DNA of 64,000 bases from Thermoanaerobaculia bacterium. GTDB lineage: Bacteria; Acidobacteriota; Thermoanaerobaculia; Multivoradales; JAHEKO01. The DNA lies in NCBI GenBank assembly GCA_041567315.1, contig JBFGCA010000003.1, forward strand, positions 15,398 to 79,397, given 5' to 3'. The notes beneath the pieces are model-generated. The model was given only the letters and a program-made list of their open reading frames with translations. It made no database searches and had not been told where the DNA came from. This document shows, in pieces, positions 1,096 through 37,402 of the stretch; the first letter of the stretch is position 1; every line of letters starts with the position of its first letter. The translations under genes were made by a program, and so were the position numbers.

Positions 1096-2595
1096 CTACT
1101 TGCCTTTGGCCGGCACGTCGGGCCGGTCATCGGCTCCCTCGGCGAGGGCGAAGAGCATGTTGCGGCTGGCCACGTAGAGGGTGCCCCGGTAGGCGATCGG
1201 GGTGGTGTAGACCGCGCTGCCCAGGTTGGTCTCGGACAGCACCACCGGCTCACCGTCCCTGCCCTTGCCGGCCTCGAGCACCACCACGTCGCCGTCCTCG
1301 TCGCCCAGGTAGACCTTGCCGTCGGCGGCGAAGGCCGAGCCCCAGACCGCGGCGAAAGTGTCGTAGGTCCAGTAGTGCTCGCCGGTCTCGGCGTCGAGAG
1401 CGTAGAGGAAGCCGCTCAGGTCGGGGATGTAGACGATGCCCTGGTAGATCGCCGCCGTCGAGATGGTGCGGTGGAAGTCCTCGCCGCCGCGATGCCAGAC
1501 CGCCGCCTTGCCGGTGACGTCGCCGGTCCCGGTGGCGTCGATGACCCAGAAGTGGCCGACGCCCTCGCCGTGCTCGGGGTCCTGGCCGACCCCCAGGTAG
1601 ACCCGCTCCTTGTAGATCACCGGCGTGCCGATGATGTTGTTGCGGGTGCCCATGCCGCCCAGCTCCCAGACCGAGTCCTTGGGGTTGAGGTCGAACTTCC
1701 AGATCGGCTTGCCGGTCGCCGGCTCGAGCGCGTAGACCCAGCCGTCGCCGCCCGGGAAGATCACCTGCGGCCGGCCGCCGATCACCGCGTAGGCGGGGTT
1801 GGACCACTGGCCGTGGAGGATGTTGCCACCCGGGAGATCGGACTCCCAGACCAGCTTGCCGGTCCTCTTGTCGACCGCGATGAAGCTGGGGGCGCGGGTG
1901 GCGGGGATGTTGACGTGCCCCTCGTCCACCCCGTTGCCGGTGACGGTGAACAGCAGGTCGCCGGCGGCGGTGGGGCTGCCGGCCGCCAGGTTGTGCGGGA
2001 AGACCGACAGCTCGCCGATCATGTCCAGCTTCCAGACCACGTCCTCGTCGGTGGCGCCGGTGCGCTTCTCGGCGGTGAAGGGGCCGTCGTTCTCGCCGTC
2101 GCGGAAGCCCTCGACGTCGGCGGCGATCAGCTCGGCCCGGTTGGAGACGTAATAGAGCCGATCGCCCTCGACGTAGGGGGCCGAGCAGACGCCCTGGAGC
2201 GGCCAGTCGTGGACGCGGCCGGCCGGCAGCTTGGCGTGCGCCGCCTGCCACAGGAACTCGCCGCTGCTTGCGTCGAACACCAGCACGTTGCCGCGGTCGC
2301 CTTCGATCGCCGGGTCGCGCCCGCCCTCGTTGTTGGTGCCGACGAAGACCTTGCCGCCGGCCGCCACCGGTCCGCCGTAGCTCTGCGAGCCCAGCGGCTG
2401 GCGCCACTTGACGTTCTCGCCGGTCTTGACGTCCCAGCGCGCGGGCAGCCCGGTCTCGGCCGAGATCATGTTGCGCTGCGGGGTGCCGCCGAACATCGCC
2501 ACCTCGGGCTCGGCGCCGGAGGCGGCGCCCGGCGACAGCGTCGCCGGCAGCGCGGCAAGGAGAAGGAAAGCTGGAAGCTGGAGTGGTCGGGTCAT
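1096..2595 (-). CDS. Secreted PQQ-like beta-propeller repeat protein (BamB / quinoprotein-like fold)
   Basis: Last 499 codons of track ORF 1096..4944(-), starting at internal ATG 2595. MTRPLQLPAFLLLAALPATLSPGAASG is a signal peptide. Recurring blades such as GWVYALEPATGKPIW and GFLYALDAETGEHYW. The rest of the long ORF is Arg/Pro-rich shadow reading. Confidence 0.85.
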   Translation of the reverse strand: MTRPLQLPAFLLLAALPATLSPGAASGAEPEVAMFGGTPQRNMISAETGLPARWDVKTGENVKWRQPLGSQSYGGPVAAGGKVFVGTNNEGGRDPAIEGDRGNVLVFDASSGEFLWQAAHAKLPAGRVHDWPLQGVCSAPYVEGDRLYYVSNRAELIAADVEGFRDGENDGPFTAEKRTGATDEDVVWKLDMIGELSVFPHNLAAGSPTAAGDLLFTVTGNGVDEGHVNIPATRAPSFIAVDKRTGKLVWESDLPGGNILHGQWSNPAYAVIGGRPQVIFPGGDGWVYALEPATGKPIWKFDLNPKDSVWELGGMGTRNNIIGTPVIYKERVYLGVGQDPEHGEGVGHFWVIDATGTGDVTGKAAVWHRGGEDFHRTISTAAIYQGIVYIPDLSGFLYALDAETGEHYWTYDTFAAVWGSAFAADGKVYLGDEDGDVVVLEAGKGRDGEPVVLSETNLGSAVYTTPIAYRGTLYVASRNMLFALAEGADDRPDVPAKGK

Positions 2596-4811
2596 GGATT
2601 GGAGGTCACCTTGAGGTTGTCGAAATAGACGGGTGTGGGGGAGTAGCCGGACAGCCCGGGCGCGCCGTCGACGATGGGCAGCGGGTCCTCCAGCTCGATC
2701 GTCCACGCTTCGGGCTCGGGAGCGTCGCGACGCCACGCCTTGCCCCGCACGGTGGCGCGCTCGGCGCCGGCGTCGACGCGGAGCTTCATGCGGTACCAGA
2801 CGCCGGGCTCCCACGGGTAGTCGACGGTCTGCATCATCCGCAGCCCCGACTGCCAGGAGTGGACCTCGAGCCGCTGATGGTTGCCCATCAGCTCCATGGT
2901 GTAGCCGCCGTTGATGAGCCCCATGTCGGGCAGGGTGTCGCCGTCCCGGCTGCCCCGGAGGTCGGCCTCGAAGGTGTAGCCGGCCTCGTCCGGGTGCCCC
3001 AGGAAGGTCAGGTGACGGTGGATCTGGACCGGCGAGGGCTGCTTGGAGAGCACCCGGTTGCCGTCCAGCTCGACGACCTGGAAGGGGGACAGGTAGCCCA
3101 TCATGTAGCCCGGCCGGCCGCCGGGCTCGACGGCCTCGAAGTCCTCGACGAGCGGCAAGGGCGCCAGCGCCCGCAACCGGCCGCTGGCTTCCAGTCCGCC
3201 GGCCCGGGCGGTCACCAGAGCGGCCTGCGAGCCGGCGGCGGGGTCGGGGGTGACGACGCCGTCGGCACCGACGGTGCCGGCCAGGCCGGCCAGCGACCAC
3301 TCGGCCGGCAGCTCGCCGATCACCCGGCCCAGGGCGTCGAAGGCCACCGCCCGGAAGCGCGCGGTCTCGCCGGTGCGGATCAGCGCTTCGGCGGGGACCA
3401 CCCTCAGGCGCGCCGCCTCGGCCCCGGCCGGCGACCGCTCCTCGGCCGGCGGCGCCGGGGCGGTCCCGGGCTCGACCCGGAACGGCCGCTCGGGGTCGCC
3501 CAGGCAGTACAGCCCCTCCTCGGTGGTGAAGTAGATCCGCCCGTAGGCCACCGCCGGCGAGCCGTAGATCTCGGGGCGGCGCCCGTCGGGCGCGCGGATC
3601 TGCTCGGCGTCGAGAGTTCGTCCGCCGTCGGCCCCGGGCTCGACGATCAGGAACCGGCCGTTGACCTCGGTGGCGTAGACCTTGCCGTCGGCCACCACCG
3701 GCGAGCCCTTGCCCACCCGGCCCAGGTCGAGCTGCCAGCGCTGCTCGCCGCCGGCGACGTCGAGGGCGTAGAGGTTGGCCGAGTTGTCGATCACGTAGAG
3801 CACGCCGCCATCGAGCGCCGGCGAGGAGAACCCCACCCCCAGCGGCGCCCGCCACAGCTCGTGGCTGGCGGTGACGTCGCCGGTGCCGGTGCCGTCGATC
3901 GCCACCACCCGGCCCATCGTGCCCTCGTCGAGGTTCTCTTCGCTGTGGGCGGCGAAGACCGTGGTGCCGTCGACCAGCACCGAGGTGTTGATGCCGCGCT
4001 GGGAGAGCTCGAAGCCCCAGACCGGCTCGCCGGTCGCCGCCTCGACGGCGTAGATGCCGCCGCTGCCGTTGCCGGCGACGATCAGCCGCCGCCCGCCGGC
4101 CACCAGCACGGCGGGGGTCGACTGGGTGTTCTTGTCGCTCATCGACGAGGCCGGCGTCGACACCCACAGCAGCTCGCCGGTCCGCTTGTCGAAGGCCCGG
4201 TAGCGATGGAGCGGCCGCGCCTCGGCCCCCCAGCCGGCGTTGGCGAAGGTGACGATCAGCCGCTCGCCGTCGACCAGCGGCGTCTGGGTGCGGCCCCCGT
4301 AGCCCTCCATGAAGGCGAACTCCTCGACCAGCTTGCGCTGCCAGACGACCGAGCCGTCGCGCGAGTCGAGACAGAAGAACAGCCCGCCGACGCCCTGGAC
4401 GTAGAGATAGCCGGTCTCGGGATCGGCGGCCAGGTTGGCCCAGCCCACCCGGGTCCACGGCACCGAGGTGTGGTAGACGTTGAAGCGCCGCTCCCAGAGC
4501 TTCTCGCCGGTCCCGGCGTCGAAGCAGGCGACCATCTCCTGGCGGGTGATCCCCTCGCCGGCGCGGCCGTTGGCGCACACCCGGCCCTGGAAGACGACCG
4601 GCGTCGAGCGGCCGACGAAGTCGACCCGCCAGATCAGGTTCTCGCCGCCGGTCGACCAGCTCGCCACCAGCCCGGTCTCGGGCGAAGTCCCGTTGCGCGC
4701 CGGCCCCCGCCAGTGGCTCCACTCGGCGGCGGCGGCGCGATCGGGGACGATCCAGAAGGCGCCTGCTGCGGCCAGTAAGGTAGCGAGAACGATCTTGGGC
4801 AACCCCTTCAC
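2592..4811 (-). CDS. Secreted PQQ-like beta-propeller protein with C-terminal jelly-roll (LamG/DUF1080-like) domain
   Basis: Track ORF 2592..4901(-). Preferred start is GTG 4811 (VKGLPKIVLATLLAAAGAFWIV signal peptide) with AAGGAG 7 nt upstream. Propeller blades GGIYAVEAATGEPVW and NLYALDVAGGEQRW. The last ~200 aa (YTFEADLRG..GYTMELMG..WYRMKLRV) look lectin-like. The stop overlaps the next start as ATGA (2592-2595). Confidence 0.8.
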   Translation of the reverse strand: MKGLPKIVLATLLAAAGAFWIVPDRAAAAEWSHWRGPARNGTSPETGLVASWSTGGENLIWRVDFVGRSTPVVFQGRVCANGRAGEGITRQEMVACFDAGTGEKLWERRFNVYHTSVPWTRVGWANLAADPETGYLYVQGVGGLFFCLDSRDGSVVWQRKLVEEFAFMEGYGGRTQTPLVDGERLIVTFANAGWGAEARPLHRYRAFDKRTGELLWVSTPASSMSDKNTQSTPAVLVAGGRRLIVAGNGSGGIYAVEAATGEPVWGFELSQRGINTSVLVDGTTVFAAHSEENLDEGTMGRVVAIDGTGTGDVTASHELWRAPLGVGFSSPALDGGVLYVIDNSANLYALDVAGGEQRWQLDLGRVGKGSPVVADGKVYATEVNGRFLIVEPGADGGRTLDAEQIRAPDGRRPEIYGSPAVAYGRIYFTTEEGLYCLGDPERPFRVEPGTAPAPPAEERSPAGAEAARLRVVPAEALIRTGETARFRAVAFDALGRVIGELPAEWSLAGLAGTVGADGVVTPDPAAGSQAALVTARAGGLEASGRLRALAPLPLVEDFEAVEPGGRPGYMMGYLSPFQVVELDGNRVLSKQPSPVQIHRHLTFLGHPDEAGYTFEADLRGSRDGDTLPDMGLINGGYTMELMGNHQRLEVHSWQSGLRMMQTVDYPWEPGVWYRMKLRVDAGAERATVRGKAWRRDAPEPEAWTIELEDPLPIVDGAPGLSGYSPTPVYFDNLKVTSNP

Positions 4812-5029
4812 TTGGCAGCTCCTTGGTCTGGATTGCGGGAGAACGGCGCCGTTTGCTGGCAGCGGGCTGGGTAGAGGACCCAAAGCGCCGGGCGGCATCA
4901 TACCGCGGGCCCGCGGTGTCCGGAGCGCGCGCCCGATGCCGCACCCGCTTCTCGTTGTTACGCGGGGCCTGGCGCCGGGGTTGAGGGCGTCGTTGGCATC
5001 CGGCCCGGGTACCGGGGCCTCGGCGGGTT

Positions 5030-5045: not shown

Positions 5046-6341
5046 ATGCGACCTTCGACCGCCTGCGCGATGCTGGTCGCGGCGGGTGCCCTGGCCGTCG
5101 CCCGGGCGCAGCCGGTGCCCGATGGTCCGCAGTTCAGGGTCAGCTCGGCCGATTCCGGACCCGAGTCGGCGGCCGACGTGGGCGTGGCGCCCGATGGCTC
5201 GTTCGTGGTCGTCTGGGAGACCTCTCTGGCCACCCCGCAGATCCGGGGGCGGCGTTTCGCCGCCGATGGCGCTCCGCTCGGAGCCGAGTTCGCGATCAAC
5301 ACGTTCACCACCGGCGGTAGGGAGGAGATTCCGGCGGTGGCGGTCGCCGCGGACGGCTCTTTCGTCGTGGTCTGGGAGAGCGACACCTCAGCGGGTAACG
5401 ACGACGACCTGACCAGCATCCAGGCGCAGCGGTTCGATGCCGCCGGCGATCCGCTCGGGGCCCAGTTCCAGGTCAACGTGGTCACCACCGGATTCCAGGT
5501 CGTTCCGGACGTCGCGGCGGCGCTCGGCGGTGGCTTCCTGGTGGTTTGGAGGACGGTCGGCCCCGGAGGCTTAGGCGACTCGGCCATTCGCGGGCGGCGC
5601 TTCGACGCCGATGGCCTGCCCACCAACGACGGGCTGCTGCTGAGCGACAGCGGAGAGCAGCGCGCGCCGGCCGTCGCCGCCGGCCCCGGCGGCGGTTTCG
5701 TCGTCGTCTGGCAGCGGGGCTCTACCGGCACCGAGATCGACGCGCGCGTGTTGGCCACCGACGGCACCCCGGCCGGCGAGATCTTCCAGGTCAACACCTC
5801 CGTCGGCGGCAACCAGCTCGGCCCCGACGTTTCGTTCGGCTCCGACGGCGGCTTCGTCGTCGTCTGGGAGAGCTTTGGCTCGCCCGGGTCGGACGACTCG
5901 AGCTACAGCATCCAGGCGCGCCGCTTCCCCGTCGAGCCGGGGCTCGAAGACCAGTTCCAGGTCAACGCCGTGACCGAGGGCGCCCAGCGCTTCGCGCGCG
6001 TTACCCGTTACCGGGACGGCGGGCTGCTCGTGGCCTGGCACAGCTTCTCCTCGGCCGGCGACGACGACGACCTGACCAGCATCCAGGCGCAGGTGCTCGG
6101 CGTCGCCGGGGAGCCCCTCGGCTCCCAGTTCCAGGTCAACGGCTACACGACCAACGCCCAGGACTACGCCGCCGTCGCCGGTACCGGCGACGGCAGGTTC
6201 GTGGCGGCGTGGACCAGCCAGGGCTCGGTCGCCGGCGCGGGCGTCCGTCGCATCCAGGGCCGGCGCTACCGGCCGGCCGCGATCTTCGCCGACGACTTCG
6301 AGTCCGGCGACAGCTCGCAGTGGTCGGGCGCCGTTCCCTGA
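5046..6341 (+). CDS. Secreted seven-repeat protein with FESGD-type C-terminal tail
   Basis: Track ORF. Signal peptide MRPSTACAMLVAAGALAVARAQP. Seven ~55-aa repeats of form DGsFVVVWes...SIQAQRFdaaGdPLGaqFQVN. Ends IFADDFESGDSSQWSGAVP-stop. Confidence 0.8.
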   Translation: MRPSTACAMLVAAGALAVARAQPVPDGPQFRVSSADSGPESAADVGVAPDGSFVVVWETSLATPQIRGRRFAADGAPLGAEFAINTFTTGGREEIPAVAVAADGSFVVVWESDTSAGNDDDLTSIQAQRFDAAGDPLGAQFQVNVVTTGFQVVPDVAAALGGGFLVVWRTVGPGGLGDSAIRGRRFDADGLPTNDGLLLSDSGEQRAPAVAAGPGGGFVVVWQRGSTGTEIDARVLATDGTPAGEIFQVNTSVGGNQLGPDVSFGSDGGFVVVWESFGSPGSDDSSYSIQARRFPVEPGLEDQFQVNAVTEGAQRFARVTRYRDGGLLVAWHSFSSAGDDDDLTSIQAQVLGVAGEPLGSQFQVNGYTTNAQDYAAVAGTGDGRFVAAWTSQGSVAGAGVRRIQGRRYRPAAIFADDFESGDSSQWSGAVP

Positions 6342-15564: not shown

Positions 15565-16080
15565 GTGGGTGATAATTCTGTGATTGCTCCGATCGGGGCG
15601 CAAATCCGGCGGCTGAGGGTGGCGAAGGGGTGGACGCTGGCCGAGCTGGCGAAGCGGGCGGGGACGAGCGCGCCGACCCTGCATCGATATGAAGGGGGCT
15701 GGGACCGGTTCGAGGTGGCCACGCTGCGGCGGATCGCCCGTGCGCTCGGGAGCTACCTGGAAATTCGCATGGTTTCGGAGGAGGCCGACCGCGCATCCGC
15801 GCCGGGGGCCTCGCGGCGGCAGTTGGTGAGCCTCCTCGCGCCGCTGTTCTGGGACCGGAAGCTGGCGCCGGGAGATCTGGACCGTTACCCTGGGTGGGTC
15901 CTGCGGCGGGTGCTGGCGTTCGGCGACCGGCGGCAAGTGGCGGCGGCGCGTCGGTTCTTCGGCGACGACGCGGTGCGGGCTGCGGCGGCCCACCGATCGG
16001 TCGATCCGCGGACGCGCAACTACTGGCGGTTGATACTGCAAGAGACGGACGACGGTGCATCCGAAAGTCCTCGACGCTGA
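15565..16080 (+). CDS. XRE-family HTH protein, putative antitoxin of the AbiE-like module
   Basis: In-frame GTG 15565 inside track ORF 15412..16080. The upstream part of that ORF runs over repeat copy B. Cro/C1 HTH IGAQIRRLRVAKGWTLAELAKRAGTSAPTLHRYEGG plus a ~110-aa C-terminal extension. Overlaps the next gene by 26 nt. Exact start uncertain. Confidence 0.7.
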   Translation: MGDNSVIAPIGAQIRRLRVAKGWTLAELAKRAGTSAPTLHRYEGGWDRFEVATLRRIARALGSYLEIRMVSEEADRASAPGASRRQLVSLLAPLFWDRKLAPGDLDRYPGWVLRRVLAFGDRRQVAAARRFFGDDAVRAAAAHRSVDPRTRNYWRLILQETDDGASESPRR

Positions 16081-16675
16081 GGCCTGGGTGCTGGTTCGCC
16101 GGCTGGTGGCCGCCGACCTGCTGGCCGGTTGGACGCTGGCCGGCGGCACCGGACTCGCGCTGCAGTTTGGTCACAGGATCTCGGAGGACCTGGACTTCTT
16201 CCGCGCCGACACCTTCGATCCCGGCCGGCTGGCCGAGGAGCTGGCCGCCCACGGACGCCTGGTGGTCCAGAGCCGGTCGGCGGACACGCTCCACGCCGTG
16301 CTCGAAGGTCTGCGGCTGAGCTTTCTGCGTGCCGAGGCGCCGCTGTTGTTCCCGGCCATGCCCTACCGGGGCCTGGCGCTCGCCGATCCGCGCGACGTCG
16401 CGGTGATGAAGCTGGTCGCCATCGGCGGCCGTGGCAGCCGCAAGGACTTCGTCGACCTCTACTTCTACCTGCGGACGGCGGACGGCCTCGAGCCGCTCCT
16501 GACCTTGCTCCGGCGGCGCTTCGAGCGGATCGACTACAACGAGTACCATCTGCTCAAGAGTCTCGTCTTCTTCGAGGACGGCGAGGCCGAGCCGATGCCG
16601 CGGATGCTGCGGAAGGTCTCCTGGCCGCAGATCAAGCGGTTCCTGATCGGCGAGGTGCGGCGGGTCGCGCCGTGA
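16055..16675 (+). CDS. Nucleotidyltransferase AbiEii/AbiGii-family toxin (DUF1814-like)
   Basis: Track ORF. LAGGTGLALQFGHRISEDLDFF nucleotidyltransferase motif and family-typical length. Confidence 0.8.
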   Translation: MHPKVLDAEAWVLVRRLVAADLLAGWTLAGGTGLALQFGHRISEDLDFFRADTFDPGRLAEELAAHGRLVVQSRSADTLHAVLEGLRLSFLRAEAPLLFPAMPYRGLALADPRDVAVMKLVAIGGRGSRKDFVDLYFYLRTADGLEPLLTLLRRRFERIDYNEYHLLKSLVFFEDGEAEPMPRMLRKVSWPQIKRFLIGEVRRVAP

Positions 16676-24469: not shown

Positions 24470-24748
24470 GTGATCGTCGGGTTCAAGCACCGTGACCTGG
24501 CGCGGTTCTTCCATTCCGGCGATGCGCGGGGGTTGAAGGCGAGTCATGTCCCGAAGGTCCGGCGCATCCTGGCGCGGCTCAATGCGGCGACGTCGACGCG
24601 CGACCTCGATGCTCCGGGTCTAAGGCTGCATCGTCTCAAGGGAGCCCGAAAGGCTGAGTGGGCCGTGGACGTCGATCGGAACTGGCGCATAACCTTCACC
24701 TTCGACGGTCGCAACTGCAGCCAGGTGAACTATGAGGACTATCACTGA
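24470..24748 (+). CDS. higB: HigB-type (RelE/ParE superfamily) toxin
   Basis: Track [27 protein letters not shown] and WRITFTFDG are typical of HigB killer proteins. Toxin-first gene order. See the note on start-region register in noticed_but_rejected. Confidence 0.8.
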
Positions 24749-24761
24749 CGAGGAACGGACC

Positions 24762-25049
24762 ATGATGCACGACCCTCCACATCCCGGTGAGATCTTGAGG
24801 GTGGACTACCTGGAGCCGCTAGGGCTGACGGTCACCGAGGCCGCCAGGGCTCTGGGCGTTGCGCGCAAGACATTGTCTGCCGTTCTCAACGAGCGGGCGG
24901 GCGTCAGCCCAGCCATGGCCTACCGGCTGTCCAAGGCGTTCCGCACCAGCCCCGAGTTCTGGGTCAATTTGCAGTCGCAGTACGACCTGTGGCAGGCGAG
25001 AGGGGTCGAGCTTGGAAGGGTCCGGCGTCTGGTGGCGGCCCGCGCCTGA
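24762..25049 (+). CDS. higA: HigA-type antitoxin (XRE HTH)
   Basis: ATG 24762 ([12 protein letters not shown]) inside track ORF 24732..25049, with GAGGAA upstream. [54 protein letters not shown]. Confidence 0.85.
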
Positions 25050-25133: not shown

Positions 25134-26519
25134 ATGGACTCGACGGTTTCTCACTACCTGGAAACCCGCCCTCTCGCTCGACGTGCACTTGAAACAGCCG
25201 CCTTGTTGTCCATCGGCCTGTGCTCGGCGGCAACGGCCGGCGGTTTTCCCGCCATCACGCCGCTGGTGGTCGAGGGCGACTCGGTGCCGGGCGTGGGGCT
25301 GGTGACGACGATCGACAATCTGGCGGTCAACGACGCCGGCGACTGGCTGGTGGAGGCCGACACCGACGCCGATCCGGCGGCCGACTCGGTGCTGCTGCGC
25401 GACGGGGCGCTGGGTCTGCGCGAGGGCGACCCGCTGGACGGCCCGGCGGGGATCGAGCTCGGGAGTTTCGACTCGGTGACCCTCAACGACCTGGGGCAGA
25501 GCGGGTTCAATTTCTTTCTCGACGGCGCCGCCGCCGGCGAGGACAGCTCGGTCCACGCCTATCTCGACACCGCGGCGCCGCTGCTCACCGGCACCGTACT
25601 GGTGGTCCAGGAGGGAAGCGAGGCGCCCGACTTGACGCCGGGCACCCCGCTCATCGGCTTCTTCGACGTCAAGATCAACGACCTCGAACAGCTCCTGGTC
25701 ACCGCCAGCGTCGACGACCCGGCGATTCCCACCACCGTCGACCGCGCGCTCTACGTCTGGACCAGCGACAGCGGCAGCGGCGGCATCGTCACCAGCACCC
25801 TGATCGCCGCCGAGGGGGACGTGCTGCCGGGCCAGGCGGCCGGCCTCACCGACTTCGGGACCGGCCCGCACGAGACCGCCCTCAGCGACGCCGGCGACGT
25901 GCTCTTCGCGGTCGACGTCCCTGGCGCCGACGCCATCTACCTCTGGGACGGCGGCTTCAGCGAGGTGGCGCAGGAGGGCGACCCGTCGCCGGTCGGCGGC
26001 CGCTCCTGGTCCAGCCTCACCGGCACCTCGCTGGACCTCAACGCCGCCGGCCAGGAGACCTACCGCGGCACCCTCGACGGCGACCCGGCCACCGCCACCC
26101 TGCTGGTCCGCGACGGCGCCAAGCTGGTCCAGGAGGGCGACACCCTGGGCGCGATCGGCGGCGTCTTCACCCTCACCGGCTTCGGCACCGGCCCGCTCGA
26201 GATCAGCGACGGTGGTGAGGTGCTCTGGTACGGCGACTGGGACGACCCCGACACCGACGTCGACACCGGTCTGTTCCTCGACGACCGCCTGCTGGTCCAG
26301 GAAGGAGTCACCGCCGTCCCCGGCCTCGGCGTCGTCGACACCCTCCGCGGCGTCACCGACGGCTACCACATGTCGAACGACGGCCGCTACGTGATCTTCG
26401 AAGCCGTCCTCGCCGGCGGCCTCGAAGGCGCCTTCCTCCTCGACCGCGGCCCCGCCCTCATCTTCACCGACGGCTTCGAATCCGGCGACACCACGGCCTG
26501 GTCGGGCGCGGTGCCGTGA
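25134..26519 (+). CDS. Secreted repeat protein (NxxGxxAF-like tandem repeats) with FESGD-type C-terminal tail
   Basis: Track ORF with AGGAGGGA upstream. Hydrophobic leader ALETAALLSIGLCSAATAGG. Recurring VNDAGDWLV, LNDLGQSGFNF, LSDAGDVLFAV, ISDGGEVLWYG and SNDGRYVIFEA. Ends IFTDGFESGDTTAWSGAVP-stop. Confidence 0.8.
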   Translation: MDSTVSHYLETRPLARRALETAALLSIGLCSAATAGGFPAITPLVVEGDSVPGVGLVTTIDNLAVNDAGDWLVEADTDADPAADSVLLRDGALGLREGDPLDGPAGIELGSFDSVTLNDLGQSGFNFFLDGAAAGEDSSVHAYLDTAAPLLTGTVLVVQEGSEAPDLTPGTPLIGFFDVKINDLEQLLVTASVDDPAIPTTVDRALYVWTSDSGSGGIVTSTLIAAEGDVLPGQAAGLTDFGTGPHETALSDAGDVLFAVDVPGADAIYLWDGGFSEVAQEGDPSPVGGRSWSSLTGTSLDLNAAGQETYRGTLDGDPATATLLVRDGAKLVQEGDTLGAIGGVFTLTGFGTGPLEISDGGEVLWYGDWDDPDTDVDTGLFLDDRLLVQEGVTAVPGLGVVDTLRGVTDGYHMSNDGRYVIFEAVLAGGLEGAFLLDRGPALIFTDGFESGDTTAWSGAVP

Positions 26520-29418: not shown

Positions 29419-30015
29419 CTAGCGAGGTGCGCCCACCGCCACGACGTAGACCGGCTCGTGGTTCCGCGACAGGCCCAGCCCCTTGCGCAGCCTGGCCTTC
29501 CAGAACGCCCCGACCGCCACTCCGCCCAGCCCCAGCGCAACGGCCTCGAGGAGCAGGTTCTGGGCCGCGTGGCCGGCCTCCAGGTAGACGTAGCGGTAAG
29601 CGTCGGCTTTGCCGTATCTGCGCGCCGTCCGCTCGAACACCGCCGCGAACACGAAGACCGCCGGCGCCTCGAGAATCAGCTCCTGCTCGACGGCCGCGTC
29701 GTAGATCAGCCGCCGCGCGTCGGCGCCGGGCAGACGTTTCAGCCGATGGCCGTCCGGGTCGTAGTGGAAGAGCCCGTCCGCGGTCGCCACGTACGTTTCG
29801 AGCGGCCGCAGCCCGCCGGCCGACGGCGCCGTCCGGTCCCCCTCCTCGTTGGTCACTCCCTGCGCCGCCCAGAGGAGCTGCGACAGGTCGGCGGCGCTGA
29901 GCGCGCGTGCCGCGAACTCCCGCACCGACCGCCGGTGGGCCAGCGTGTGCTCGAGCGAGGTGCGCCCCCGGGTCCGCGGTGGTGGCAGTCGAGTCCAGTT
30001 CTTCCGGGGTGACAT
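29419..30015 (-). CDS. SagB-type / nitroreductase-family dehydrogenase
   Basis: Track ORF. RRSVREF, PSAGGLRPLETYV and YRYVYLEAGHAAQNLLLEAVALGLG. Confidence 0.8.
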   Translation of the reverse strand: MSPRKNWTRLPPPRTRGRTSLEHTLAHRRSVREFAARALSAADLSQLLWAAQGVTNEEGDRTAPSAGGLRPLETYVATADGLFHYDPDGHRLKRLPGADARRLIYDAAVEQELILEAPAVFVFAAVFERTARRYGKADAYRYVYLEAGHAAQNLLLEAVALGLGGVAVGAFWKARLRKGLGLSRNHEPVYVVAVGAPR

Positions 30016-30063
30016 CGCTCACTCCGCAGGGCGCCGGTACCAGGATACTCATTCGACCCTGCC

Positions 30064-30069
30064 TATAAT
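30064..30069 (+). promoter_or_regulatory. Perfect -10 box TATAAT upstream of the AsnB-like operon
   Basis: TATAAT lies 37 nt upstream of GTG 30107, with GAGGGAG as Shine-Dalgarno in between. Confidence 0.4.
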
Positions 30070-30106
30070 CCGCTGCGACAGTCAACCCGTCCCGAGGGAG
30101 ATTCCC

Positions 30107-31450
30107 GTGGCCACACCCCTGCACCGCGTCGTCAACCTGATCGATCCCGCGACCCAGGCCCTGGGGGCGGTCCCGCTTGCCACTGCCGAGGAGCTGCTGG
30201 TCCGCCGGCCGGAGGAGCTGGAGCGGCTGCCGGGGTCGTTCGCCCTGGTGGCGCGCGACGGCGAGCGGGTGCTGATGGCGCGCAGCCTGGACCGGCCGTT
30301 GCGCTACTTCCTGGCCAAGGAGCCGGACGGGCCGATGCTGGTGGTGGCCGAGCGCATCGACCAGATCCGCGACTTCCTGGCCGGCGAGGGCTACGCGCAT
30401 CAGTTCCACCCCAGCTACACGCGGATGGTGCCGGCGCACCACGTGACGACGCTGCGGCTGATCGGCTGTCCCGACCCCAATCCGACCCACCGGCGGTTCT
30501 TCGCGCCGCCGCGGGCGAGCGGCCCCGCCGATCTGGACGCGATCGGGGCGGCCTACGTCGGCGCCCTCTACGAGGAGGTGCGGCGGTGGGCGGCGCGGCT
30601 CGACGCCGGGGAGCCGATCGGCGTCCTCTTCTCGGGCGGGGTAGACAGCGGTGCGGTCCTCTTGTGCGTCGAGCGGGCGCTGCTCGATCTCGGTCAGAGC
30701 CCGGCGCGGCTCAAGGCGTTCACGCTGTCGGTGGAAGGCTCGGGTGCGGATCTCGAACAGGCGCGCGAGTTCCTGTGCCGCACCGACCGCGAGATGCTCC
30801 ACGAGGCCGTCGAGGTGGGGGAGGGCGATCTCGATCCTTTCGAGGCGGTGCGGGTCATCGAGGACTACAAGCCGCTCGACGTCGAGTGCGCCACCGTCGC
30901 CCTGGCCCTGCTGCGCGGCATCCGCGAGCGCTACCCCGACTGGCGGTACCTGGCCGACGGCGACGGCGGCGACGAGAACCTCAAGGACTACCCGGTCGAG
31001 GAGAACCCGGAGCTCACCATCCGCAGCGTGGTCAACAACTCGATGCTCTACCAGGAGGGCTGGGGGGTGGAGGCCGTCAAGCACTCGCTGACCTACAGCG
31101 GCGGCTTCAGCCGCTCGTGCGTGCGCACCTTTGCGCCGCTGCGGCGCTATGGCTTCCAGGGCTTCAGCCCGCTCACCCGGCCGGCGGTCGTCCGGGTCGC
31201 CGAGGCGATCCGGTTCGACGAGCTGACCCGCGGCTCGACCGCGGCGCTCTACCGGCTCAAGGGCGAGATCGTCCGCCGCGGCATGAAGGCGCTGTTCGAC
31301 CTCGACTTCCCGGTCTTCGAGAAGCGCCGCTTCCAGCACGGCGCGCTCGGCGGCGAGCTGTTCGCGCGCCGGTTCGGTGCCGACGGCGAACGCTACCGGG
31401 AGTACTTCGCCGAGCTGCATCGCGCCGCGCCGCGGGCGGCCTCCGCCTGA
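30107..31450 (+). CDS. Asparagine synthetase (AsnB)-family adenylating enzyme lacking the N-terminal catalytic Cys
   Basis: GTG 30107 inside track ORF 29849..31450. PP-loop GVLFSGGVDSGAVL. Degenerate glutaminase remnant GSFALVARDGERVLMARSLDRPLRYF. The N-terminus VATPLHRV lacks the MCG nucleophile. Confidence 0.75.
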   Translation: MATPLHRVVNLIDPATQALGAVPLATAEELLVRRPEELERLPGSFALVARDGERVLMARSLDRPLRYFLAKEPDGPMLVVAERIDQIRDFLAGEGYAHQFHPSYTRMVPAHHVTTLRLIGCPDPNPTHRRFFAPPRASGPADLDAIGAAYVGALYEEVRRWAARLDAGEPIGVLFSGGVDSGAVLLCVERALLDLGQSPARLKAFTLSVEGSGADLEQAREFLCRTDREMLHEAVEVGEGDLDPFEAVRVIEDYKPLDVECATVALALLRGIRERYPDWRYLADGDGGDENLKDYPVEENPELTIRSVVNNSMLYQEGWGVEAVKHSLTYSGGFSRSCVRTFAPLRRYGFQGFSPLTRPAVVRVAEAIRFDELTRGSTAALYRLKGEIVRRGMKALFDLDFPVFEKRRFQHGALGGELFARRFGADGERYREYFAELHRAAPRAASA

Positions 31451-31463
31451 TCGCGGCGACGAC

Positions 31464-32468
31464 GTGCCGCCGACCCGGACGAGCGCCGCGGGCGAGGACC
31501 GCCGCGTCCGCGCCCTGCGCCCTCCCAAGCCGGCCGTCGACCTCACCCGGCCGCTCGGCGTGCTGGTCGACAAGGAGCGCGGCGCCGCCGGTCCGCCGGT
31601 CGACTGCGTCACCGTCTTCCTGGCCGGGCGCGAGTGCCCGTTCACCTGCGTGTTCTGCGATCTGTGGCGGCACACCACCGACGGGCCGACCCCGGCGGGC
31701 GCCATCCCCCGGCAGCTCCGCCTGGCGCTGGAGGAGATCGGCGGGCTGCCGCCCGGGGCCCGTCTCAAGCTCTACAACGCCAGCAACTTCTTCGACGAGC
31801 TGGCGGTGCCGGGCGCCGACGACGACGAGATCCTGGGGCTCTGCGCGGGCGCGGCGCGCGTGGTCGTCGAGTGTCATCCGAAGCTGGTGGGGCGGCGGTG
31901 CTTCGAGTTCGCGGCGCGGCTCGGGGGCGAGCTGGAGGTGGCGATGGGTCTCGAAACGGTCCACCCCGAGGCGCTGCCGCGGCTCAACAAGAGGATGACC
32001 GTCGAAGACTTCGACCGGGCGGCGCGGCGGCTCACCGGGCGCGGCATCGCCGTGCGGGCGTTCGTGCTGATCGGGGTGCCGTTCGTGCCCTTCGACGATC
32101 AGGTGGAGTGGGCGGTCCGCTCGGTGGAGCACGCCCTGGAGGCGGGCGCCGGGGTGGTCTCGCTGATTCCGGTCCGCGGCGGCAACGGCGAGCTCGAACG
32201 GCTGGCCGCGGCGGGAGAGTTCCGCGAGCCGCGGCTGGATGAGGTCGAGGAGGCGTTCGAGCGGGCGCTCGCAGGAGCGCTGGATAGGGCACCGGACGGG
32301 GCGCTTGGCGGGGGCAGGGGAGTCGTCCAGCTCGACGTCTGGGACCTGGAGCGGCTCGGCGGTTGTCCGGGCTGCGCGGAGCGGCGCCGCGACCGCCTGG
32401 CGCGGATGGCCCTCAGCGGCGAGATCGAGCCGCGGGTCGGCTGTCCGGTCTGCGGTGGGGGCGGCTGA
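31464..32468 (+). CDS. Radical SAM protein (Elp3-type core) with C-terminal CxxC..CxxC zinc ribbon
   Basis: GTG 31464 inside track ORF 31377..32468. CX3CX2C cluster motif GRECPFTCVFCDLW. C-terminal CPGCAERRRDRLARMALSGEIEPRVGCPVCGG. Confidence 0.75.
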   Translation: MPPTRTSAAGEDRRVRALRPPKPAVDLTRPLGVLVDKERGAAGPPVDCVTVFLAGRECPFTCVFCDLWRHTTDGPTPAGAIPRQLRLALEEIGGLPPGARLKLYNASNFFDELAVPGADDDEILGLCAGAARVVVECHPKLVGRRCFEFAARLGGELEVAMGLETVHPEALPRLNKRMTVEDFDRAARRLTGRGIAVRAFVLIGVPFVPFDDQVEWAVRSVEHALEAGAGVVSLIPVRGGNGELERLAAAGEFREPRLDEVEEAFERALAGALDRAPDGALGGGRGVVQLDVWDLERLGGCPGCAERRRDRLARMALSGEIEPRVGCPVCGGGG

Positions 32469-32469
32469 G

Positions 32470-34047
32470 ATGGCCGACCGGTTCGACGTCGCGGTGGTGG
32501 GCTCGGGCTTCGCCGGCTCGATCCTGGCGCGCGCCCTGGCCAGCGCCGGCCGGCGGGTGGCGCTGGTCGAGCGCGCCCGCCATCCCCGCTTCGCCCTCGG
32601 CGAGTCGTCGACCCCGCTCGCCGCCATCGCGCTCGAGCGCCTCGCCCACGCCCACGACATGCCCGACCTGCTCGACCTGGCGAGCTACGGCCGCTGGCTG
32701 CGCCGCCATCCGGAGCTGCGGCGCGGGCTCAAGCGCGGCTTCACCTTCTACCCGCATCGCGCCGGCGAGCCCTACGCCAACGGGCCGCGCAACGAGGCGC
32801 GGCTGCTGGTGGCGGCGAGCCCCGACGACGAAGTGGCCGACAGCCACTGGCTGCGCGCCGACGTCGACGCCGAGTTGGTGCGCCGCGCCGTCGCCGTCGG
32901 CGTCGACTACCGTGACCGCACTGAACTGCGCGAAGCGGAGATCTCCGCGGCCGGCGTGCGGCTACGGGGCAGCCGGGAAGGCGATCCGCTCTCGATCGCC
33001 AGCGAGTTCGTGGTCGACGCCACCGGCGGCGCCGACTTCCTGGCCCGGCACCTGGAGCTCCCGTCGCGCCTCGACCGGGTGCCGTTCGCGAGCCGGCTGG
33101 TGGCCGCCCACTTCGAGGGCGTCCGGCCCTTCGCCGAGGTCGCCGCGGCCGCCGGGGCCGAGCTGCCCTCCGGCCCGTACCCGGACGACCTCGCCGCCGT
33201 GCACCACCTGACCGATCTCGGCTGGCTCTACGCCCTGCGCTTCGACCACGGCGTCACCAGCGCCGGCTTCGTCGTCGATTCGGCGAGGGCCACCAGGCTC
33301 GGCTTCGACTTCGACGCCGGAGACCCGGCCGGAACCTGGCACCGCCTGCTCGAACGCTACCCCTCGCTCCGCGGCCAGTTCGCCGGGGCCGGGCCGCGCG
33401 GCGCGATCGCCGTCACCCCGCGCCTGCAGCGCCGGCTGGGCGCCGCCGCAGGTCCGCGCTGGGCGCTGCTCCCGCACTCGTTCGCCTTCTTCGACCCCCT
33501 GTTCTCGACCGGCATCGCCTGGAGCCTGCTGGGCGTCGAGCGCCTCGCCGCGCTGCTGGCCGACGGCCTCCCCGACGTCGCCGGCCTCCGGGCCTACGAG
33601 ACGCTCCTCGCCGACGAAGCCGAGCACCTGCAGGCCCTTCTCGCCAGCGCCTACCGCCGCTTCGAGGACTTCGGCGCCTTCACCTCGGTGGCCCTGGTCT
33701 ACTTCGCCGCCGCCAGCTTCAACGAGGTCCGCCAGCGCCTCCTGCCGCCGCCCGAGGGCCTCCCTTCCTGGGCCTGGGACGGCTTCCTCGGCGCCCGCGA
33801 TCCGCTGCTCCAGCGGCTCGCGCGAGACGCCGCCACCGCCGGCCCCGACTCCTCCCGCTCGATCCGCGACGCCATCGCCCCGCGCAACGTCGCCGGCCTC
33901 GCCGATCCCGCCCGCCACAACCTCTACCCGGTCGACCTCGACGAACTGGTCCGCTATGCCGGCCTCCTCGGCATGACCGCGGCCGAGATGACCGCCGCCT
34001 TGCCCCGCCTCCGCGGCCGGACTTCCCGCCGCGTCGTCGCCGGCTAG
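32470..34047 (+). CDS. FAD-dependent oxidoreductase, flavin-halogenase/monooxygenase fold
   Basis: ATG 32470 inside track ORF 32239..34047, 1 nt after the upstream stop. Dinucleotide motif VAVVGSGFAGS. FALGESSTP resembles the GES..P motif of halogenase-like flavoenzymes. GWLYALRF occupies the place of WxWxIP. Confidence 0.75.
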   Translation: MADRFDVAVVGSGFAGSILARALASAGRRVALVERARHPRFALGESSTPLAAIALERLAHAHDMPDLLDLASYGRWLRRHPELRRGLKRGFTFYPHRAGEPYANGPRNEARLLVAASPDDEVADSHWLRADVDAELVRRAVAVGVDYRDRTELREAEISAAGVRLRGSREGDPLSIASEFVVDATGGADFLARHLELPSRLDRVPFASRLVAAHFEGVRPFAEVAAAAGAELPSGPYPDDLAAVHHLTDLGWLYALRFDHGVTSAGFVVDSARATRLGFDFDAGDPAGTWHRLLERYPSLRGQFAGAGPRGAIAVTPRLQRRLGAAAGPRWALLPHSFAFFDPLFSTGIAWSLLGVERLAALLADGLPDVAGLRAYETLLADEAEHLQALLASAYRRFEDFGAFTSVALVYFAAASFNEVRQRLLPPPEGLPSWAWDGFLGARDPLLQRLARDAATAGPDSSRSIRDAIAPRNVAGLADPARHNLYPVDLDELVRYAGLLGMTAAEMTAALPRLRGRTSRRVVAG

Positions 34048-34226
34048 CCTGCACTTCTCACCGGGTCGCTCGGCGAGCGGGCGCAGGCGCCTGAAGATGC
34101 GGGGCTTACCGACGGAGGGCACCACAGGCGTACTCGAAGTACGTCGAGGATGCCCGACCGAGGAAAGTCCCGCAGATTCAGGTGCATCCGCCCGCGCAGC
34201 AGGGAGCCGGTGAGAAGTGCAGGCTA
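34045..34226. repeat. 182-bp palindromic element with perfect 20-bp terminal inverted repeats
   Basis: TAGCCTGCACTTCTCACCGG (34045-34064) is the exact reverse complement of 34207-34226. The interior is also imperfectly self-complementary (CCTGAAGATGCGGG / CCCGCAGATTCAGG, central GTACTCGAAGTAC). Both arms include the stop codons of the convergent flanking genes. Confidence 0.8.
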
Positions 34227-35469: not shown

Positions 35470-35892
35470 CTACCCGCGCCGCGCTCTTGCGAAGACCGGG
35501 GAGATCTCGAGGCGGGGCACGCGCGCGAAGTGGCGCAGGTTGCCGGTGACCAGGGTCAGGCCGTGGCGCAGGGCGGTCGCGGCGATCTGGAGGTCGGCAT
35601 CGGGCAGGAGCTCGCCGCGCTCCTCGAGGTGGGCCCGGAGGGCGCCGAACTCGCGGGCGACTCCGAGATCGTAGGGGAGCACGGTGACGGCCGGGAGCAC
35701 CCGCTCCTCGATGTTCCGGAGGTGGCGATTGCGGTTCTGCGAGCGGTAGGCACCCTTGTACAGCTCGCCGAGCACCACGGCACTGGCGAACTGATGCTCC
35801 CGCGGCACGGTTTCGATCCACTCGAGGTAGCGCGCCGCGGGTCTCGGGCGCAGCAGCTCCGAGATCGCGTCGGTGTCGAAGAGGTAGGCCAA
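35470..35892 (-). CDS. vapC: PIN-domain toxin VapC
   Basis: Track ORF. MAYLFDTDAISELLR and ADLQIAATALRHGLTLVTGNLRHF are typical VapC signatures. Confidence 0.85.
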   Translation of the reverse strand: MAYLFDTDAISELLRPRPAARYLEWIETVPREHQFASAVVLGELYKGAYRSQNRNRHLRNIEERVLPAVTVLPYDLGVAREFGALRAHLEERGELLPDADLQIAATALRHGLTLVTGNLRHFARVPRLEISPVFARARRG

Positions 35893-35901
35893 GCCGGTGC
35901 C

Positions 35902-36180
35902 TCAGTCGAGCTCGGGAATCCGGCGGCCGGCCGTGCGACCGTACTCCAGGGCTTTCTCCGCCACCTCCTCCGACCCCTCCCACCCCCCGGCCAGGCTGGC
36001 CAGCCCGCCCGCGGGACCGGCGGCCCTCAGACGTTCGACCTCCTCGAACAGATCCATGGGGACCAGCGCGACGACCCGCCTGCCGTGCCGGGTCAGCACC
36101 ACGGGCTCGCCGCTCTCGGCCTGGCGGACACACTCGGAGAAATGGGCCTTGGCGTCGACGATGGAGCGGCTCGTTGGCAT
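35902..36180 (-). CDS. Phd/YefM-family antitoxin
   Basis: ATG 36180 inside track ORF 35902..36216. SIVDAKAHFSECVRQAESGEPVVLTRHGRRVVALVPMD. CATAAT (complement of 36187-36192) lies 6 nt upstream of the start. Confidence 0.8.
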   Translation of the reverse strand: MPTSRSIVDAKAHFSECVRQAESGEPVVLTRHGRRVVALVPMDLFEEVERLRAAGPAGGLASLAGGWEGSEEVAEKALEYGRTAGRRIPELD

Positions 36181-36364: not shown

Positions 36365-37402
36365 ATGATCCCGAGATCACCGCTCATGCGGTCCTTCGCG
36401 CTGCTTCTCGTCTTCGGTTCGGCGTCGCCGTCGGAAGCGCAGGATCCGTGCACGCTGACGCCGTACGACGGAACCAACGAGAACGGTCTGGGGGCCGCGC
36501 CGGGGTTCGTCATCGAGTACTGCTCGGAGATGGACGTGCCCGAGACGTGCGTCGATCGGGGGAGCTACTTCATCAACGCGGTCCAGGTCGAGGCGACCCA
36601 GACCGGCGGCGACACGACGATGCCGTACACGGCGCAGGTGCGGCGGGCCGTCTTCGCTTCGCGGCTGGGGCCGATCCCGCCCGGGGAGATCGTCGCCGGC
36701 CCGACCCGCGACGTGGCCCAGGGCGTGCCGACGTTTCCGGCCTCGCAGACCTGGGTGACGCCGGTCTTCGACGCCGCCGGCGGCTTCTCGGTCGGTTTCG
36801 ACGCCATCCAGCTCACCTCCGCCTGCGGGGTCCTCGACGGGAACCAGACCGCGAACCAGTTCTTCGGCACCGACGAGACCTCCGCCACGCCCATCAACCT
36901 GTGCTGGAAGGGCGATCCGCCCGCGCCGCCGGCGGAGGACTGCCGGGTCGGAGCCCCCAACCTCCGATCGCTGCGGGTCGGGCTGCAGGTCGCCCCGCAC
37001 GGTGGGAGCGCCGACGGCGACCAGGAAGTGCCGCCGGTCAACACCACGGCCACCGGCACCGTGCGGCTGGGACCCAACACCCCCGGCGGGACCGACTTCT
37101 GGCTCGAGGTGGTCCACGACGTGTCGAGCCCCACCGGAGCCCACATCCACGACGCTCCGGCCGGCGACAACGGGCCGATCGTCGTCGACCTCGGCGACCC
37201 GACCAGCCCCATCGTCCTCGCCAGCGTGGACATGACCGGGCTCATCGACGAGCTCTTCGCCGGCACCCTGTACGTCAACGTCCACTCCGTGGTCAACCCG
37301 GGCGGCGAGATCCGCGGCCAGATCCTCAACTCCGGGGACAACATCTTCGCCGACGGCTTCGAGAGCGGCGACACCGCCTCCTGGTCGAGCAGCGTGCCCT
37401 GA
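36365..37402 (+). CDS. Secreted CHRD-domain protein with FESGD-type C-terminal tail
   Basis: Track ORF with GGGGAGG upstream. Signal peptide MRSFALLLVFGSASPSEAQ. CHRD-like GDQEVPPVNTTATGTVRL...AHIHDAPAGDNGPIVVDL...LYVNVHSVVNPGGEIRGQI. Ends IFADGFESGDTASWSSSVP-stop. Confidence 0.8.
   Translation: MIPRSPLMRSFALLLVFGSASPSEAQDPCTLTPYDGTNENGLGAAPGFVIEYCSEMDVPETCVDRGSYFINAVQVEATQTGGDTTMPYTAQVRRAVFASRLGPIPPGEIVAGPTRDVAQGVPTFPASQTWVTPVFDAAGGFSVGFDAIQLTSACGVLDGNQTANQFFGTDETSATPINLCWKGDPPAPPAEDCRVGAPNLRSLRVGLQVAPHGGSADGDQEVPPVNTTATGTVRLGPNTPGGTDFWLEVVHDVSSPTGAHIHDAPAGDNGPIVVDLGDPTSPIVLASVDMTGLIDELFAGTLYVNVHSVVNPGGEIRGQILNSGDNIFADGFESGDTASWSSSVP

Follow-up and report, generated by a model that had tools for sequence, protein, structure and literature searches.

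Why should three secreted proteins with unrelated bodies end in the same 19 residues? The question is raised by a 64,000-nucleotide stretch of a genome assembled from a Thermoanaerobaculia bacterium (Acidobacteriota; contig JBFGCA010000003.1; GC content, 72.2%), the whole of which is referred to here as the window. Three of its genes, encoding the proteins denoted P1, P2, and P3 (Table 1), share a C-terminal tail for which an original prediction, made from the DNA alone, had suggested a role as an unassigned sorting or processing tag. The analysis reported here indicates that the tail probably serves as a tag for some kind of targeting or anchoring, and that it is widespread in certain Acidobacteriota, where it has apparently gone undescribed. 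As an overall explanation, to which we would give an even chance, it would be a modular C-terminal tag without a transmembrane (TM) helix, carried by proteins exported through the Sec pathway, derived from a concanavalin A (ConA)-like jelly-roll domain, and bound by a partner.

Three proteins with unrelated bodies share a 19-residue ending

Translation of the open reading frames (ORFs) confirmed that P1, P2, and P3 all end in the 19-residue pattern [I]F-x-D-[DG]-FESGD-xxx-WS-xx-VP, directly followed by a stop codon. A six-frame regular expression scan of the window found FESG-type motifs at these three sites only, each immediately 5' of the stop. The three tails share DNA similarity that begins sharply with the Ile codon and does not extend past the stop, with unrelated flanks on both sides. 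The copies differ at synonymous sites: GAG/GAA and TCC/AGC (for one Ser), as had been noted originally, and also GCC/GCG, GTT/GTG, and CCC/CCG. No single synonymous step can produce the TCC/AGC difference. All three tagged ORFs show third-position GC content (GC3) of the coding type (0.91-0.94; 0.91 in P1) and, with GC3 above 90%, the codon identity that remains between the tails is as codon bias would give. A mobile DNA repeat was accordingly ruled out, the similarity being limited to 57 coding bases that include synonymous and Ser codon-family differences.

The three bodies proved to be as different as predicted. P1 has no Pfam match, and its AlphaFold2 (AF2) model is a seven-bladed beta-propeller (predicted local distance difference test [pLDDT] score, 89; predicted template modeling [pTM] score, 0.90), for which the best Foldseek matches are the seven-bladed propellers of CylK, PLL lectins, and sialidases. 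The repeats of P1 span about 55 residues (FQVNTYTT...FVVVW...SIQGQRF), and its family includes 3,771 homologs at E ≤ 1e-5 among the scored candidates, yet has no Pfam entry. P2 consists of DUF7453/NxxGxxAF repeats; it scores 46.9 bits against the respective "choice-of-anchor" repeat model TIGR05002, slightly below the cutoff of 50, and PF24251 is present in its homologs. P3 contains a CHRD domain (PF07452, 81 bits), and an unrelated metagenomic CHRD-type fragment (P0001) carries the same tag at its end. Signal peptides had been predicted for all three proteins. Those of P1 and P3 pass a simple signal-peptide heuristic, whereas the N-terminus of P2, a longer n-region followed by a hydrophobic stretch, fails it at the annotated start, although a signal peptide is plausible there as well.

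The tag is nearly invariant and fixed at the C-terminus

A first homolog search (word-indexed, with a 45-amino-acid tail alignment) returned 11 short fragments, too few for statistics, which gave the first sign of C-terminal anchoring. A profile built from the three tails was then searched exhaustively through 1.84 billion representative proteins, which yielded 2,985 clusters at E ≤ 1e-3. Among the sequences retrieved from this search, 97 contain the motif at the C-terminus only, 15 both at the C-terminus and internally, and 45 internally only. The 97 terminal-only proteins always end exactly five residues past the Trp, and the consensus of the tag is [ILV]-F-x-D-G-F-E-S-G-D-T-x-x-W-S-x-x-V-P-COOH. 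Along this consensus, the residue counts out of the 97 terminal examples are I83, F96, D95, G93, F94, E97, S93, G96, D90, T85, W97, S96, V91, and P93; each residue of the signature F, D, G, F, E, S, G, D, W is thus kept in at least 90 of them.

Because the three-tail profile favors terminal copies, a stop-free genome scan served as the unbiased sample. It covered GTDB, with one genome per species, and used a back-translated pattern that ends at Trp-Ser and requires no stop. Among the 129 matches listed, a stop follows exactly four residues past WS (W+5) in 73 (57%) and 0-7 residues past WS in 102 (79%), whereas the remaining 27 read on beyond the motif; the C-terminal anchoring implied by the window proteins therefore holds. 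The stop codons behind terminal tags are TGA (59), TAG (39), and TAA (9; n = 107), and a remnant of the jelly-roll domain described below was detected within 1.5 kb downstream of only 1 of these 107 tags. The use of all three stops and the lack of a domain remnant in 106 of 107 cases identify these ends as real C-termini rather than truncations, frameshifts, or read-through sites. Stop-codon read-through or recoding was ruled out on the same grounds, with nothing conserved downstream.

Terminal tags come nearly exclusively from Acidobacteriota metagenome-assembled genomes (MAGs) labeled Thermoanaerobaculia (including Ca. Multivoradales and Ca. Sulfomarinibacteraceae), Holophagae, or unclassified, and a few are from MAGs labeled Deltaproteobacteria or Polyangiaceae. 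The closest tagged homologs of the window proteins fall in the same Acidobacteriota group as most terminal tags. Tagged genes are scattered, with loose clustering: there are three in the window and at least five in the Holophagae MAG CAVQXZ01, and loci L129 and L130 each contain another, unrelated tagged gene within 10 kb.

Some tagged proteins depart from the single canonical copy. Tag-type units repeated in tandem every ~21-23 residues, with no domain separating them, are present in P0021, P0025, P0028, P0035, P0036, P0057, P0073, and P0131, mostly at or close to the C-terminus. On a Thermoanaerobaculia contig (L126:10001-17272), five tandem paralogs of the P1 propeller family (451-455 amino acids) are encoded; of these, P0315 was read in sequence and has a degenerate tag at its end (...FRDGFESNDTSRWSVTSP), and the locus does not contain the canonical motif. 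Separately, Cys is enriched in the 12 residues upstream of the tag (2.9% versus 1.3% in the preceding 200 residues, p = 9e-6; loci L001-L120 and the window). Of 107 tagged proteins, 32 have such a Cys, whereas P1, P2, and P3 do not; it may form a disulfide that closes the last element of the body.

The tag is carried by diverse secreted proteins and is predicted to lie outside their folds

The bodies of the 88 tagged proteins from genome loci form 46 clusters, including 38 singletons, and 55 Pfam families were identified on the 73 full-length tagged proteins. These families include peptidases (subtilases [S8], M36, M28, and C25), glycoside hydrolase family 8 (GH8), BNR/sialidase-like repeats, FG-GAP, beta-helix proteins, GSDH, and multihaem cytochromes, and, judged by them, the cargo consists of typical extracellular proteins. 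The enrichment among signal-peptide proteins expected of a sorting tag was found: by a deliberately simple and hence crude heuristic, signal-peptide-like N-termini are present in 57 of 74 tagged ORFs (77%) versus 135 of 322 other ORFs of the same loci (42%; odds ratio 4.6, p = 4e-8).

The P1 model shows the final ~20 residues as coil (pLDDT ~50-68) on a well-modeled body; most of the 89 aligned sequences behind this model carry the tag, yet the tag region stays coil. The tag is thus predicted to be an exposed, flexible appendage outside the fold. A "velcro" strand closing the P1 and P2 propellers was ruled out, considering that the tail is unstructured in the P1 model and is found on at least 46 unrelated folds.

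The tag replaces known signals at the same junction in homologs

The endings of the best 120 P2-body homologs and of 119 P1-body homologs were classified. Among the former, 26 end in the tag, canonical or degenerate, which directly follows the last body element (...EGAFLIE); 4 in PEP-CTERM, that is, a TM helix with an Arg cluster (...EGAFMIEVPEPASALLLMSGLALLIRRR; P0211 and P0212 score above the TIGR02595 cutoff); 31 in a dockerin-like ...WGxCP element, an ending seen on Planctomycetota homologs; and 59 in other ways. Some P2-body homologs end in the type A sorting domain of the type IX secretion system (T9SS), as exemplified by P0251 (TIGR04183, 30.4 bits versus a cutoff of 23). Among the P1-body homologs, for which dockerin-like endings were not counted separately, 72 carry the tag (47 canonical and 25 degenerate) directly behind ...SIQGQRY/F, 11 end in a TM helix plus Arg cluster (LPEP... 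or VPAMS/VPALS...), and 36 have other endings. By sequence, then, the tag holds the position that is filled by PEP-CTERM, T9SS domains, or dockerin-like modules in homologs from other phyla. Different signals on homologs at one junction are a criterion by which sorting signals are recognized, and the tag behaves accordingly.

Classification of the P1-body homologs also revealed a second type of signal, VPAL/VPAMS followed by a TM helix and RRR(R), in P0283, P0293, P0299, P0380, and P0397. Two tandem paralogs ending in VPAL-TM-RRRR are encoded directly downstream of a tagged gene in locus L028 (4477-7083, + strand). P0293 and P0299 have no NCBIfam match at E ≤ 1, and this element may be an IPTL-like tripartite signal, possibly one for which there is no model yet. 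Classical signals composed of a TM helix and Arg cluster do coexist with the tag in the loci that bear it, but are infrequent there, accounting for 5 of 591 coding-like ORF ends.

The tag differs from the described C-terminal sorting signals

Small C-terminal sorting domains have been characterized by eight attributes, which include a TM helix (attribute 4), a cluster of basic residues at the end (5), an N-terminal signal peptide in most members (6), dissimilarity of many member pairs outside the signal (7), and homologs elsewhere that lack the signal or carry another one (8) (bioRxiv 10.1101/2023.06.07.544157). The tag displays attributes 1, 2, 3, 6, 7, and 8, being C-terminal, multi-copy, and nearly invariant, and occurring on signal-peptide proteins with unrelated bodies whose homologs have alternative signals. 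Attribute 4 is missing, as the 19 residues include four to five acidic ones and no hydrophobic run, and so is attribute 5, as the consensus, which closes with ...WS-x-x-V-P-COOH, contains neither Arg nor Lys. The dissimilarity from PEP-CTERM, LPXTG, GlyGly-CTERM, and similar signals that had been claimed from the sequence was thereby substantiated.

Comparison with curated models led to the same result. No match over the tail was obtained with NCBIfam release 20 or Pfam-A, either for whole proteins at E ≤ 1 or for isolated tails at E ≤ 10. The T9SS type A model (TIGR04183, 72 positions) did not match the tail and scored the positive control, P0251. A literature search with motif strings retrieved only chance matches in unrelated papers.

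Also as predicted, the window encodes no candidate processing enzyme: no sortase, exosortase, rhombosortase, rhomboid, CPBP-type, or PDZ protease was found among its ~45 Pfam-annotated genes. A LonC-like protease (50429-53050) is cytoplasmic in type and was judged not relevant to the tag. Across 120 tag-bearing loci and extra flanks, no real gene family recurs beside tagged genes, including peptidases or transpeptidases and secretion-system genes; the neighbor "family" most often encountered in the 120 loci was apparently a spurious off-frame ORF, and a common Ser/Thr kinase came second.

The tag originates from the first segment of a ConA-like jelly-roll

The original prediction had named a rival scenario, in which the motif is the internal first strand of a lectin-like domain and the ORFs are truncated. 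Its first part holds in a minority of cases, in other phyla. In large multidomain proteins, the motif opens a repeated domain of ~205-290 residues; the non-terminal copies that continue into this domain are mostly from Chloroflexota, Actinomycetota, candidate phyla radiation (CPR) bacteria, Bathyarchaeota, Fimbriimonas, and Vicinamibacteria. Several more non-terminal copies, from Thermoanaerobaculia, are units of the tag type with a short extension behind them. The internal copies align at position 1 of PF14099 (Polysacc_lyase) and position 3 of PF02018 (CBM_4_9), and the AF2 model of the native domain is a ConA-like jelly-roll (pLDDT 92, pTM 0.89), with the best structural matches to polysaccharide lyases of families PL20 and PL7 and to the lectin-like subdomain of clostridial neurotoxins. 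The tag and this N-terminal segment of the jelly-roll share the motif [ILV]F.DGFESGD..W[ST], and the tag lacks the remaining ~185 residues of the domain, no remainder of which was found in the window.

The second part of the scenario, truncation, is contradicted by the three stop codons, the lack of a domain remnant in 106 of 107 cases, and a distinct terminal signature. Among the matches listed, the residue after GD is hydrophobic in 17 of 27 non-terminal copies versus 17 of 102 terminal copies, where Thr is dominant (p = 6e-6), and the VP-COOH end is fixed in terminal copies. A Vicinamibacteria MAG (L105:1-4531, + strand) encodes three tandem P1-body paralogs, each followed by a complete jelly-roll of ~205 amino acids, whereas in Thermoanaerobaculia and Holophagae the same body family ends after the first 19 residues of the jelly-roll. 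The L105 arrangement represents an intermediate step in the evolution of the tag from the full domain. By these alignments, the tag is the opening ~19 residues of a ConA-like jelly-roll turned into an independent element, and it has since diverged from the domain-embedded copy.

Another protein of the window (2592-4901, - strand), a PQQ/BamB-like beta-propeller protein divergent from P1, has a C-terminal region that starts with ...LPLVEDFEAVEPGG and ends with ...YFDNLKVTSNP. This region follows the first- and last-strand pattern of ConA-like domains, and the putative domain appears to be complete.

In one lineage, a jelly-roll without its first segment is encoded beside tagged genes

A jelly-roll that lacks the segment corresponding to the tag is called "headless" here. 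Headless copies were searched for with the native-domain hidden Markov model (HMM) on all ORFs of the loci, plus 102 motif-led domain segments. One ORF, in locus L075, matched the HMM only from profile position 24 on. It encodes a small protein in which a signal peptide (MKRFVTLLAFAAILFVSTGAMA) is directly followed by the jelly-roll, and its gene lies close to that of a tagged dihaem cytochrome c (Table 1). In hhalign, this protein aligned with domain columns 23-201 (probability 99.3%, E = 1.4e-20), with the alignment starting two residues past the predicted cleavage site. The L075 protein thus lacks the first ~20 columns of the domain, and the tag corresponds to columns 1-19.

A broader metagenome search for headless relatives found three near-identical loci only. 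In one of these, L125 (30-1553), the gene immediately upstream of the headless gene is another tagged gene, encoding an EB_dh haem protein that ends in SIFVDGFESGDTSSWSSTQ before the stop. The presence of the headless jelly-roll beside tagged genes suggests docking by strand complementation, in which the tag would supply the missing segment.

How the tag might be read

From these observations we infer how the tag might be read, what binding could be involved, which partner might act in the lineage of the window, and where the cargo might finally reside. The tagged protein would be exported by the Sec pathway, and its body would then fold while the tag remains flexible and exposed. A partner would recognize the segment bearing the two Phe residues and the Trp together with the free ...VP carboxyl end. 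The candidate partner would be a secreted or surface jelly-roll without a first segment of its own, the fold of which the tag would complete in trans; as a result, the cargo would be held at the cell surface or in the matrix, or handed on for export. Whatever the partner, its placement relative to homologs makes the tag a positional equivalent of the known signals for anchoring and sorting.

We propose, tentatively, that the tag docks to a protein partner, most concretely by complementing the strand that a headless jelly-roll lacks. The specific version, natural split-domain docking in which dozens of unrelated exoproteins per genome are captured by a surface jelly-roll without its first segment, is more tentative still, and the support from a single lineage is anecdotal. 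Several observations weigh against it. The headless jelly-roll is known from one narrow lineage of four near-identical loci labeled Polyangiaceae, not Acidobacteriota. Searches of the window, of the 120 tag-bearing loci of 8 kb each, with Acidobacteriota loci among them, and of a further ~100 kb flanking tagged genes on long contigs gave no other example. In locus L123, the gene upstream of the headless gene is untagged, and the tags of this lineage end in ...TQ, not ...VP. Strand insertion does not obviously need the strict conservation of the last two residues, and a 19-residue peptide might equally be a recognition site for a protease or for secretion machinery.

The first of these alternatives, a cleaved sorting signal, would have a periplasmic or outer-membrane peptidase or transpeptidase remove the tag and link the protein to a lipid, glycan, or surface polymer. 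There are precedents in PorU, which acts on T9SS C-terminal domains, and in the sortases, which act on LPXTG. An invariant C-terminal dipeptide would fit an enzyme pocket, the tag replaces PEP-CTERM and T9SS domains at the same junction, and six of the eight published attributes of sorting domains are present (bioRxiv 10.1101/2023.06.07.544157). We nevertheless regard cleavage as unlikely: known enzymes of this class act on membrane-held substrates, whereas the tag has neither TM helix nor basic cluster; no peptidase or transpeptidase recurs beside tagged genes or is encoded in the window; and the tandem units of some proteins are unusual for cleavage signals.

Alternatively, the tag could be an export signal, read without any anchoring by a type II-like or other outer-membrane system that moves folded periplasmic proteins out of the cell. 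Proteins with Sec-type N-termini need a second step over the outer membrane, the cargo consists mainly of secreted hydrolases, adhesin-like repeat proteins, and redox proteins, and the tail is flexible and exposed in the P1 model. This explanation seems quite unlikely to us, given that the sampled loci show no linkage of tagged genes with genes for a secretion system and that the slot in homologs is mostly occupied by anchoring or retention signals (PEP-CTERM and dockerin-like) rather than pure export signals; it also leaves both the descent from a jelly-roll and the adjacent headless jelly-roll unexplained.

Very unlikely is an autonomous mini-module, in which the acidic and aromatic residues of the tag would bind calcium or a polysaccharide of the surface or matrix without a protein partner, much as short cell-wall-binding repeats do. 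Descent from carbohydrate-binding and lyase jelly-rolls, the invariant D, E, D, F, F, and W, and the tandem units of ~21-23 residues, as expected of avidity-based binding repeats, are compatible with this possibility. A glycan-binding site is, however, unlikely to form from one peptide of 19 residues with no predicted structure, the first segment of these jelly-rolls is probably structural and is not known to belong to the sugar-binding face, and neither the extreme C-terminal position nor the fixed ...VP end would be accounted for.

Finally, the tag could be a functionless remnant of truncated lectin-like domains or an assembly or gene-calling artifact, in line with a real domain that opens with the motif, with the complete domain on the P1 body family in Vicinamibacteria, and with the occurrence of degenerate tail variants. 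This explanation is effectively excluded by the identical end point in 57% of the matches listed in the unbiased sample, over at least 46 unrelated body families, near-invariance across 97 diverged clusters, the use of three stop codons with no downstream domain remnant in 106 of 107 cases, the systematic switch from a hydrophobic residue to Thr after GD, the different Ser codon families in the window copies, and the presence of the same proteins in independent assemblies (Logan and NCBI).

Other genes of the window

The tagged genes are flanked by genes of the toxin-antitoxin and defense type (Table 1), which suggests a variable genomic region. A HigA-like helix-turn-helix antitoxin is encoded just upstream of the P2 gene, and the related locus L121 additionally has a HigB-like toxin upstream; a PIN toxin and an adjacent small antitoxin-like ORF lie just upstream of the P3 gene. 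The genes of this type elsewhere in the window encode a second PIN protein, an AbiEii protein, and a Uma2 nuclease. Three overlapping or adjacent genes adjoined by a Zn-ribbon protein gene could form a small cluster for peptide modification or natural-product synthesis, to which no link of the tag was established.

Table 1. Locations of the tagged genes, tag copies, and other features of the window, and of the headless jelly-roll gene pair of locus L075
Feature	Location	Strand	Description
P1 gene	5046..6341	+	431 amino acids; signal-peptide-like N-terminus, seven-repeat FQVN/FVVVW body, tag at end
Tag copy 1	6282..6341	+	IFADDFESGDSSQWSGAVP, then TGA stop
P2 gene	25134..26519	+	461 amino acids; DUF7453/NxxGxxAF "choice-of-anchor" repeat family, tag at end
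Tag copy 2	26460..26519	+	IFTDGFESGDTTAWSGAVP, then TGA stop
P3 gene	36365..37402	+	345 amino acids; signal peptide, CHRD domain at residues 217-320, tag at end
Tag copy 3	37343..37402	+	IFADGFESGDTASWSSSVP, then TGA stop
Tagged dihaem cytochrome c gene	L075 3106..4035	-	MAG labeled Polyangiaceae; ends in LIFEDGFESGDTSSWSGTQ, then stop
Headless jelly-roll gene	L075 2206..2871	-	221 amino acids; GGAGG ribosome-binding site; 234 bp downstream of the cytochrome gene
Toxin-antitoxin/defense-type genes	24732-25049 (+), 35470-36216 (-), 38093-38590 (+), 16055-16675 (+), 40124-40690 (-)		Flank tagged genes
Asparagine-synthase-like, radical S-adenosylmethionine (SAM), and flavin adenine dinucleotide (FAD)-dependent oxidoreductase (Trp-halogenase-like N-terminus) genes	29849-34047	+	Three overlapping/adjacent genes
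Zn-ribbon protein gene	34224-35306	-	Adjoins the 29849-34047 cluster

Implications and comparison with known systems

Short C-terminal signals are a main handle for predicting surface-bound bacterial proteins and have led to the discovery of sortases, exosortases, rhombosortases, and myxosortases. In Thermoanaerobaculia and Holophagae, thousands of protein clusters bear the tag, which current annotation models miss. These Acidobacteriota are abundant in soil, sediment, and the sea and are barely cultured, and much of the exoproteome predicted for them (proteases, glycosidases, lectin-like propellers, and extracellular cytochromes) is called "hypothetical," with no localization cue. A C-terminally anchored HMM of the tag would be a simple addition to annotation pipelines.

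As a kind of feature, C-terminal sorting and anchoring tags are already known; what is new here is a tag that lacks two of the three parts defining the described short signals, has no curated model, and is of different evolutionary origin. Like the tripartite signals (PEP-CTERM/exosortase, LPXTG/sortase, GlyGly-CTERM/rhombosortase, MYXO-CTERM/myxosortase, and IPTL-CTERM), the tag is short, strictly C-terminal, and multi-copy, has a near-invariant signature, occurs on signal-peptide proteins with unrelated bodies, and is interchangeable with other signals at one junction in homologs. Unlike them, it has no TM segment and no Arg/Lys cluster, no curated model matches it, and no cognate enzyme was found in the window or in the flanks of tagged genes. 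The lack of the TM helix and basic cluster of classical signals points to a different kind of reading machinery.

With the T9SS C-terminal domain (TIGR04183), the tag shares the absence of a TM helix, the occurrence on secreted hydrolases and adhesins of diderms, a beta-sandwich ancestry, and the slot in some P2-body homologs, but the T9SS domain is folded and described by a 72-position model, whereas the tag comprises 19 residues, is predicted to be unstructured, and has no sequence similarity to it. Dockerins, which dock noncovalently to cohesins, are likewise C-terminal on diverse extracellular proteins, and dockerin-like ends fill the same slot in 31 of 120 P2-body homologs. Dockerins, however, comprise ~60-70 residues, bind calcium, and are duplicated helical modules for which the cohesin partner is known, in contrast to a 19-residue segment of beta-strand origin.

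The closest parallels to the proposed docking are donor-strand complementation, in chaperone-usher and type V pili, and SpyTag/SpyCatcher, where a short peptide supplies the strand missing from a beta-sandwich. We know of no strand complementation for a ConA-like jelly-roll, nor of its use as a general tag on many unrelated exoproteins, and the known systems build pili or are engineered. The L075 pair, a tag and a headless jelly-roll, has the same complementary layout in sequence. Docking to a split jelly-roll, should it prove true, would attach proteins to the surface of bacteria by a categorically new route and be a natural counterpart of the engineered peptide-tag/catcher pairs, with a ready-made tag and receptor.

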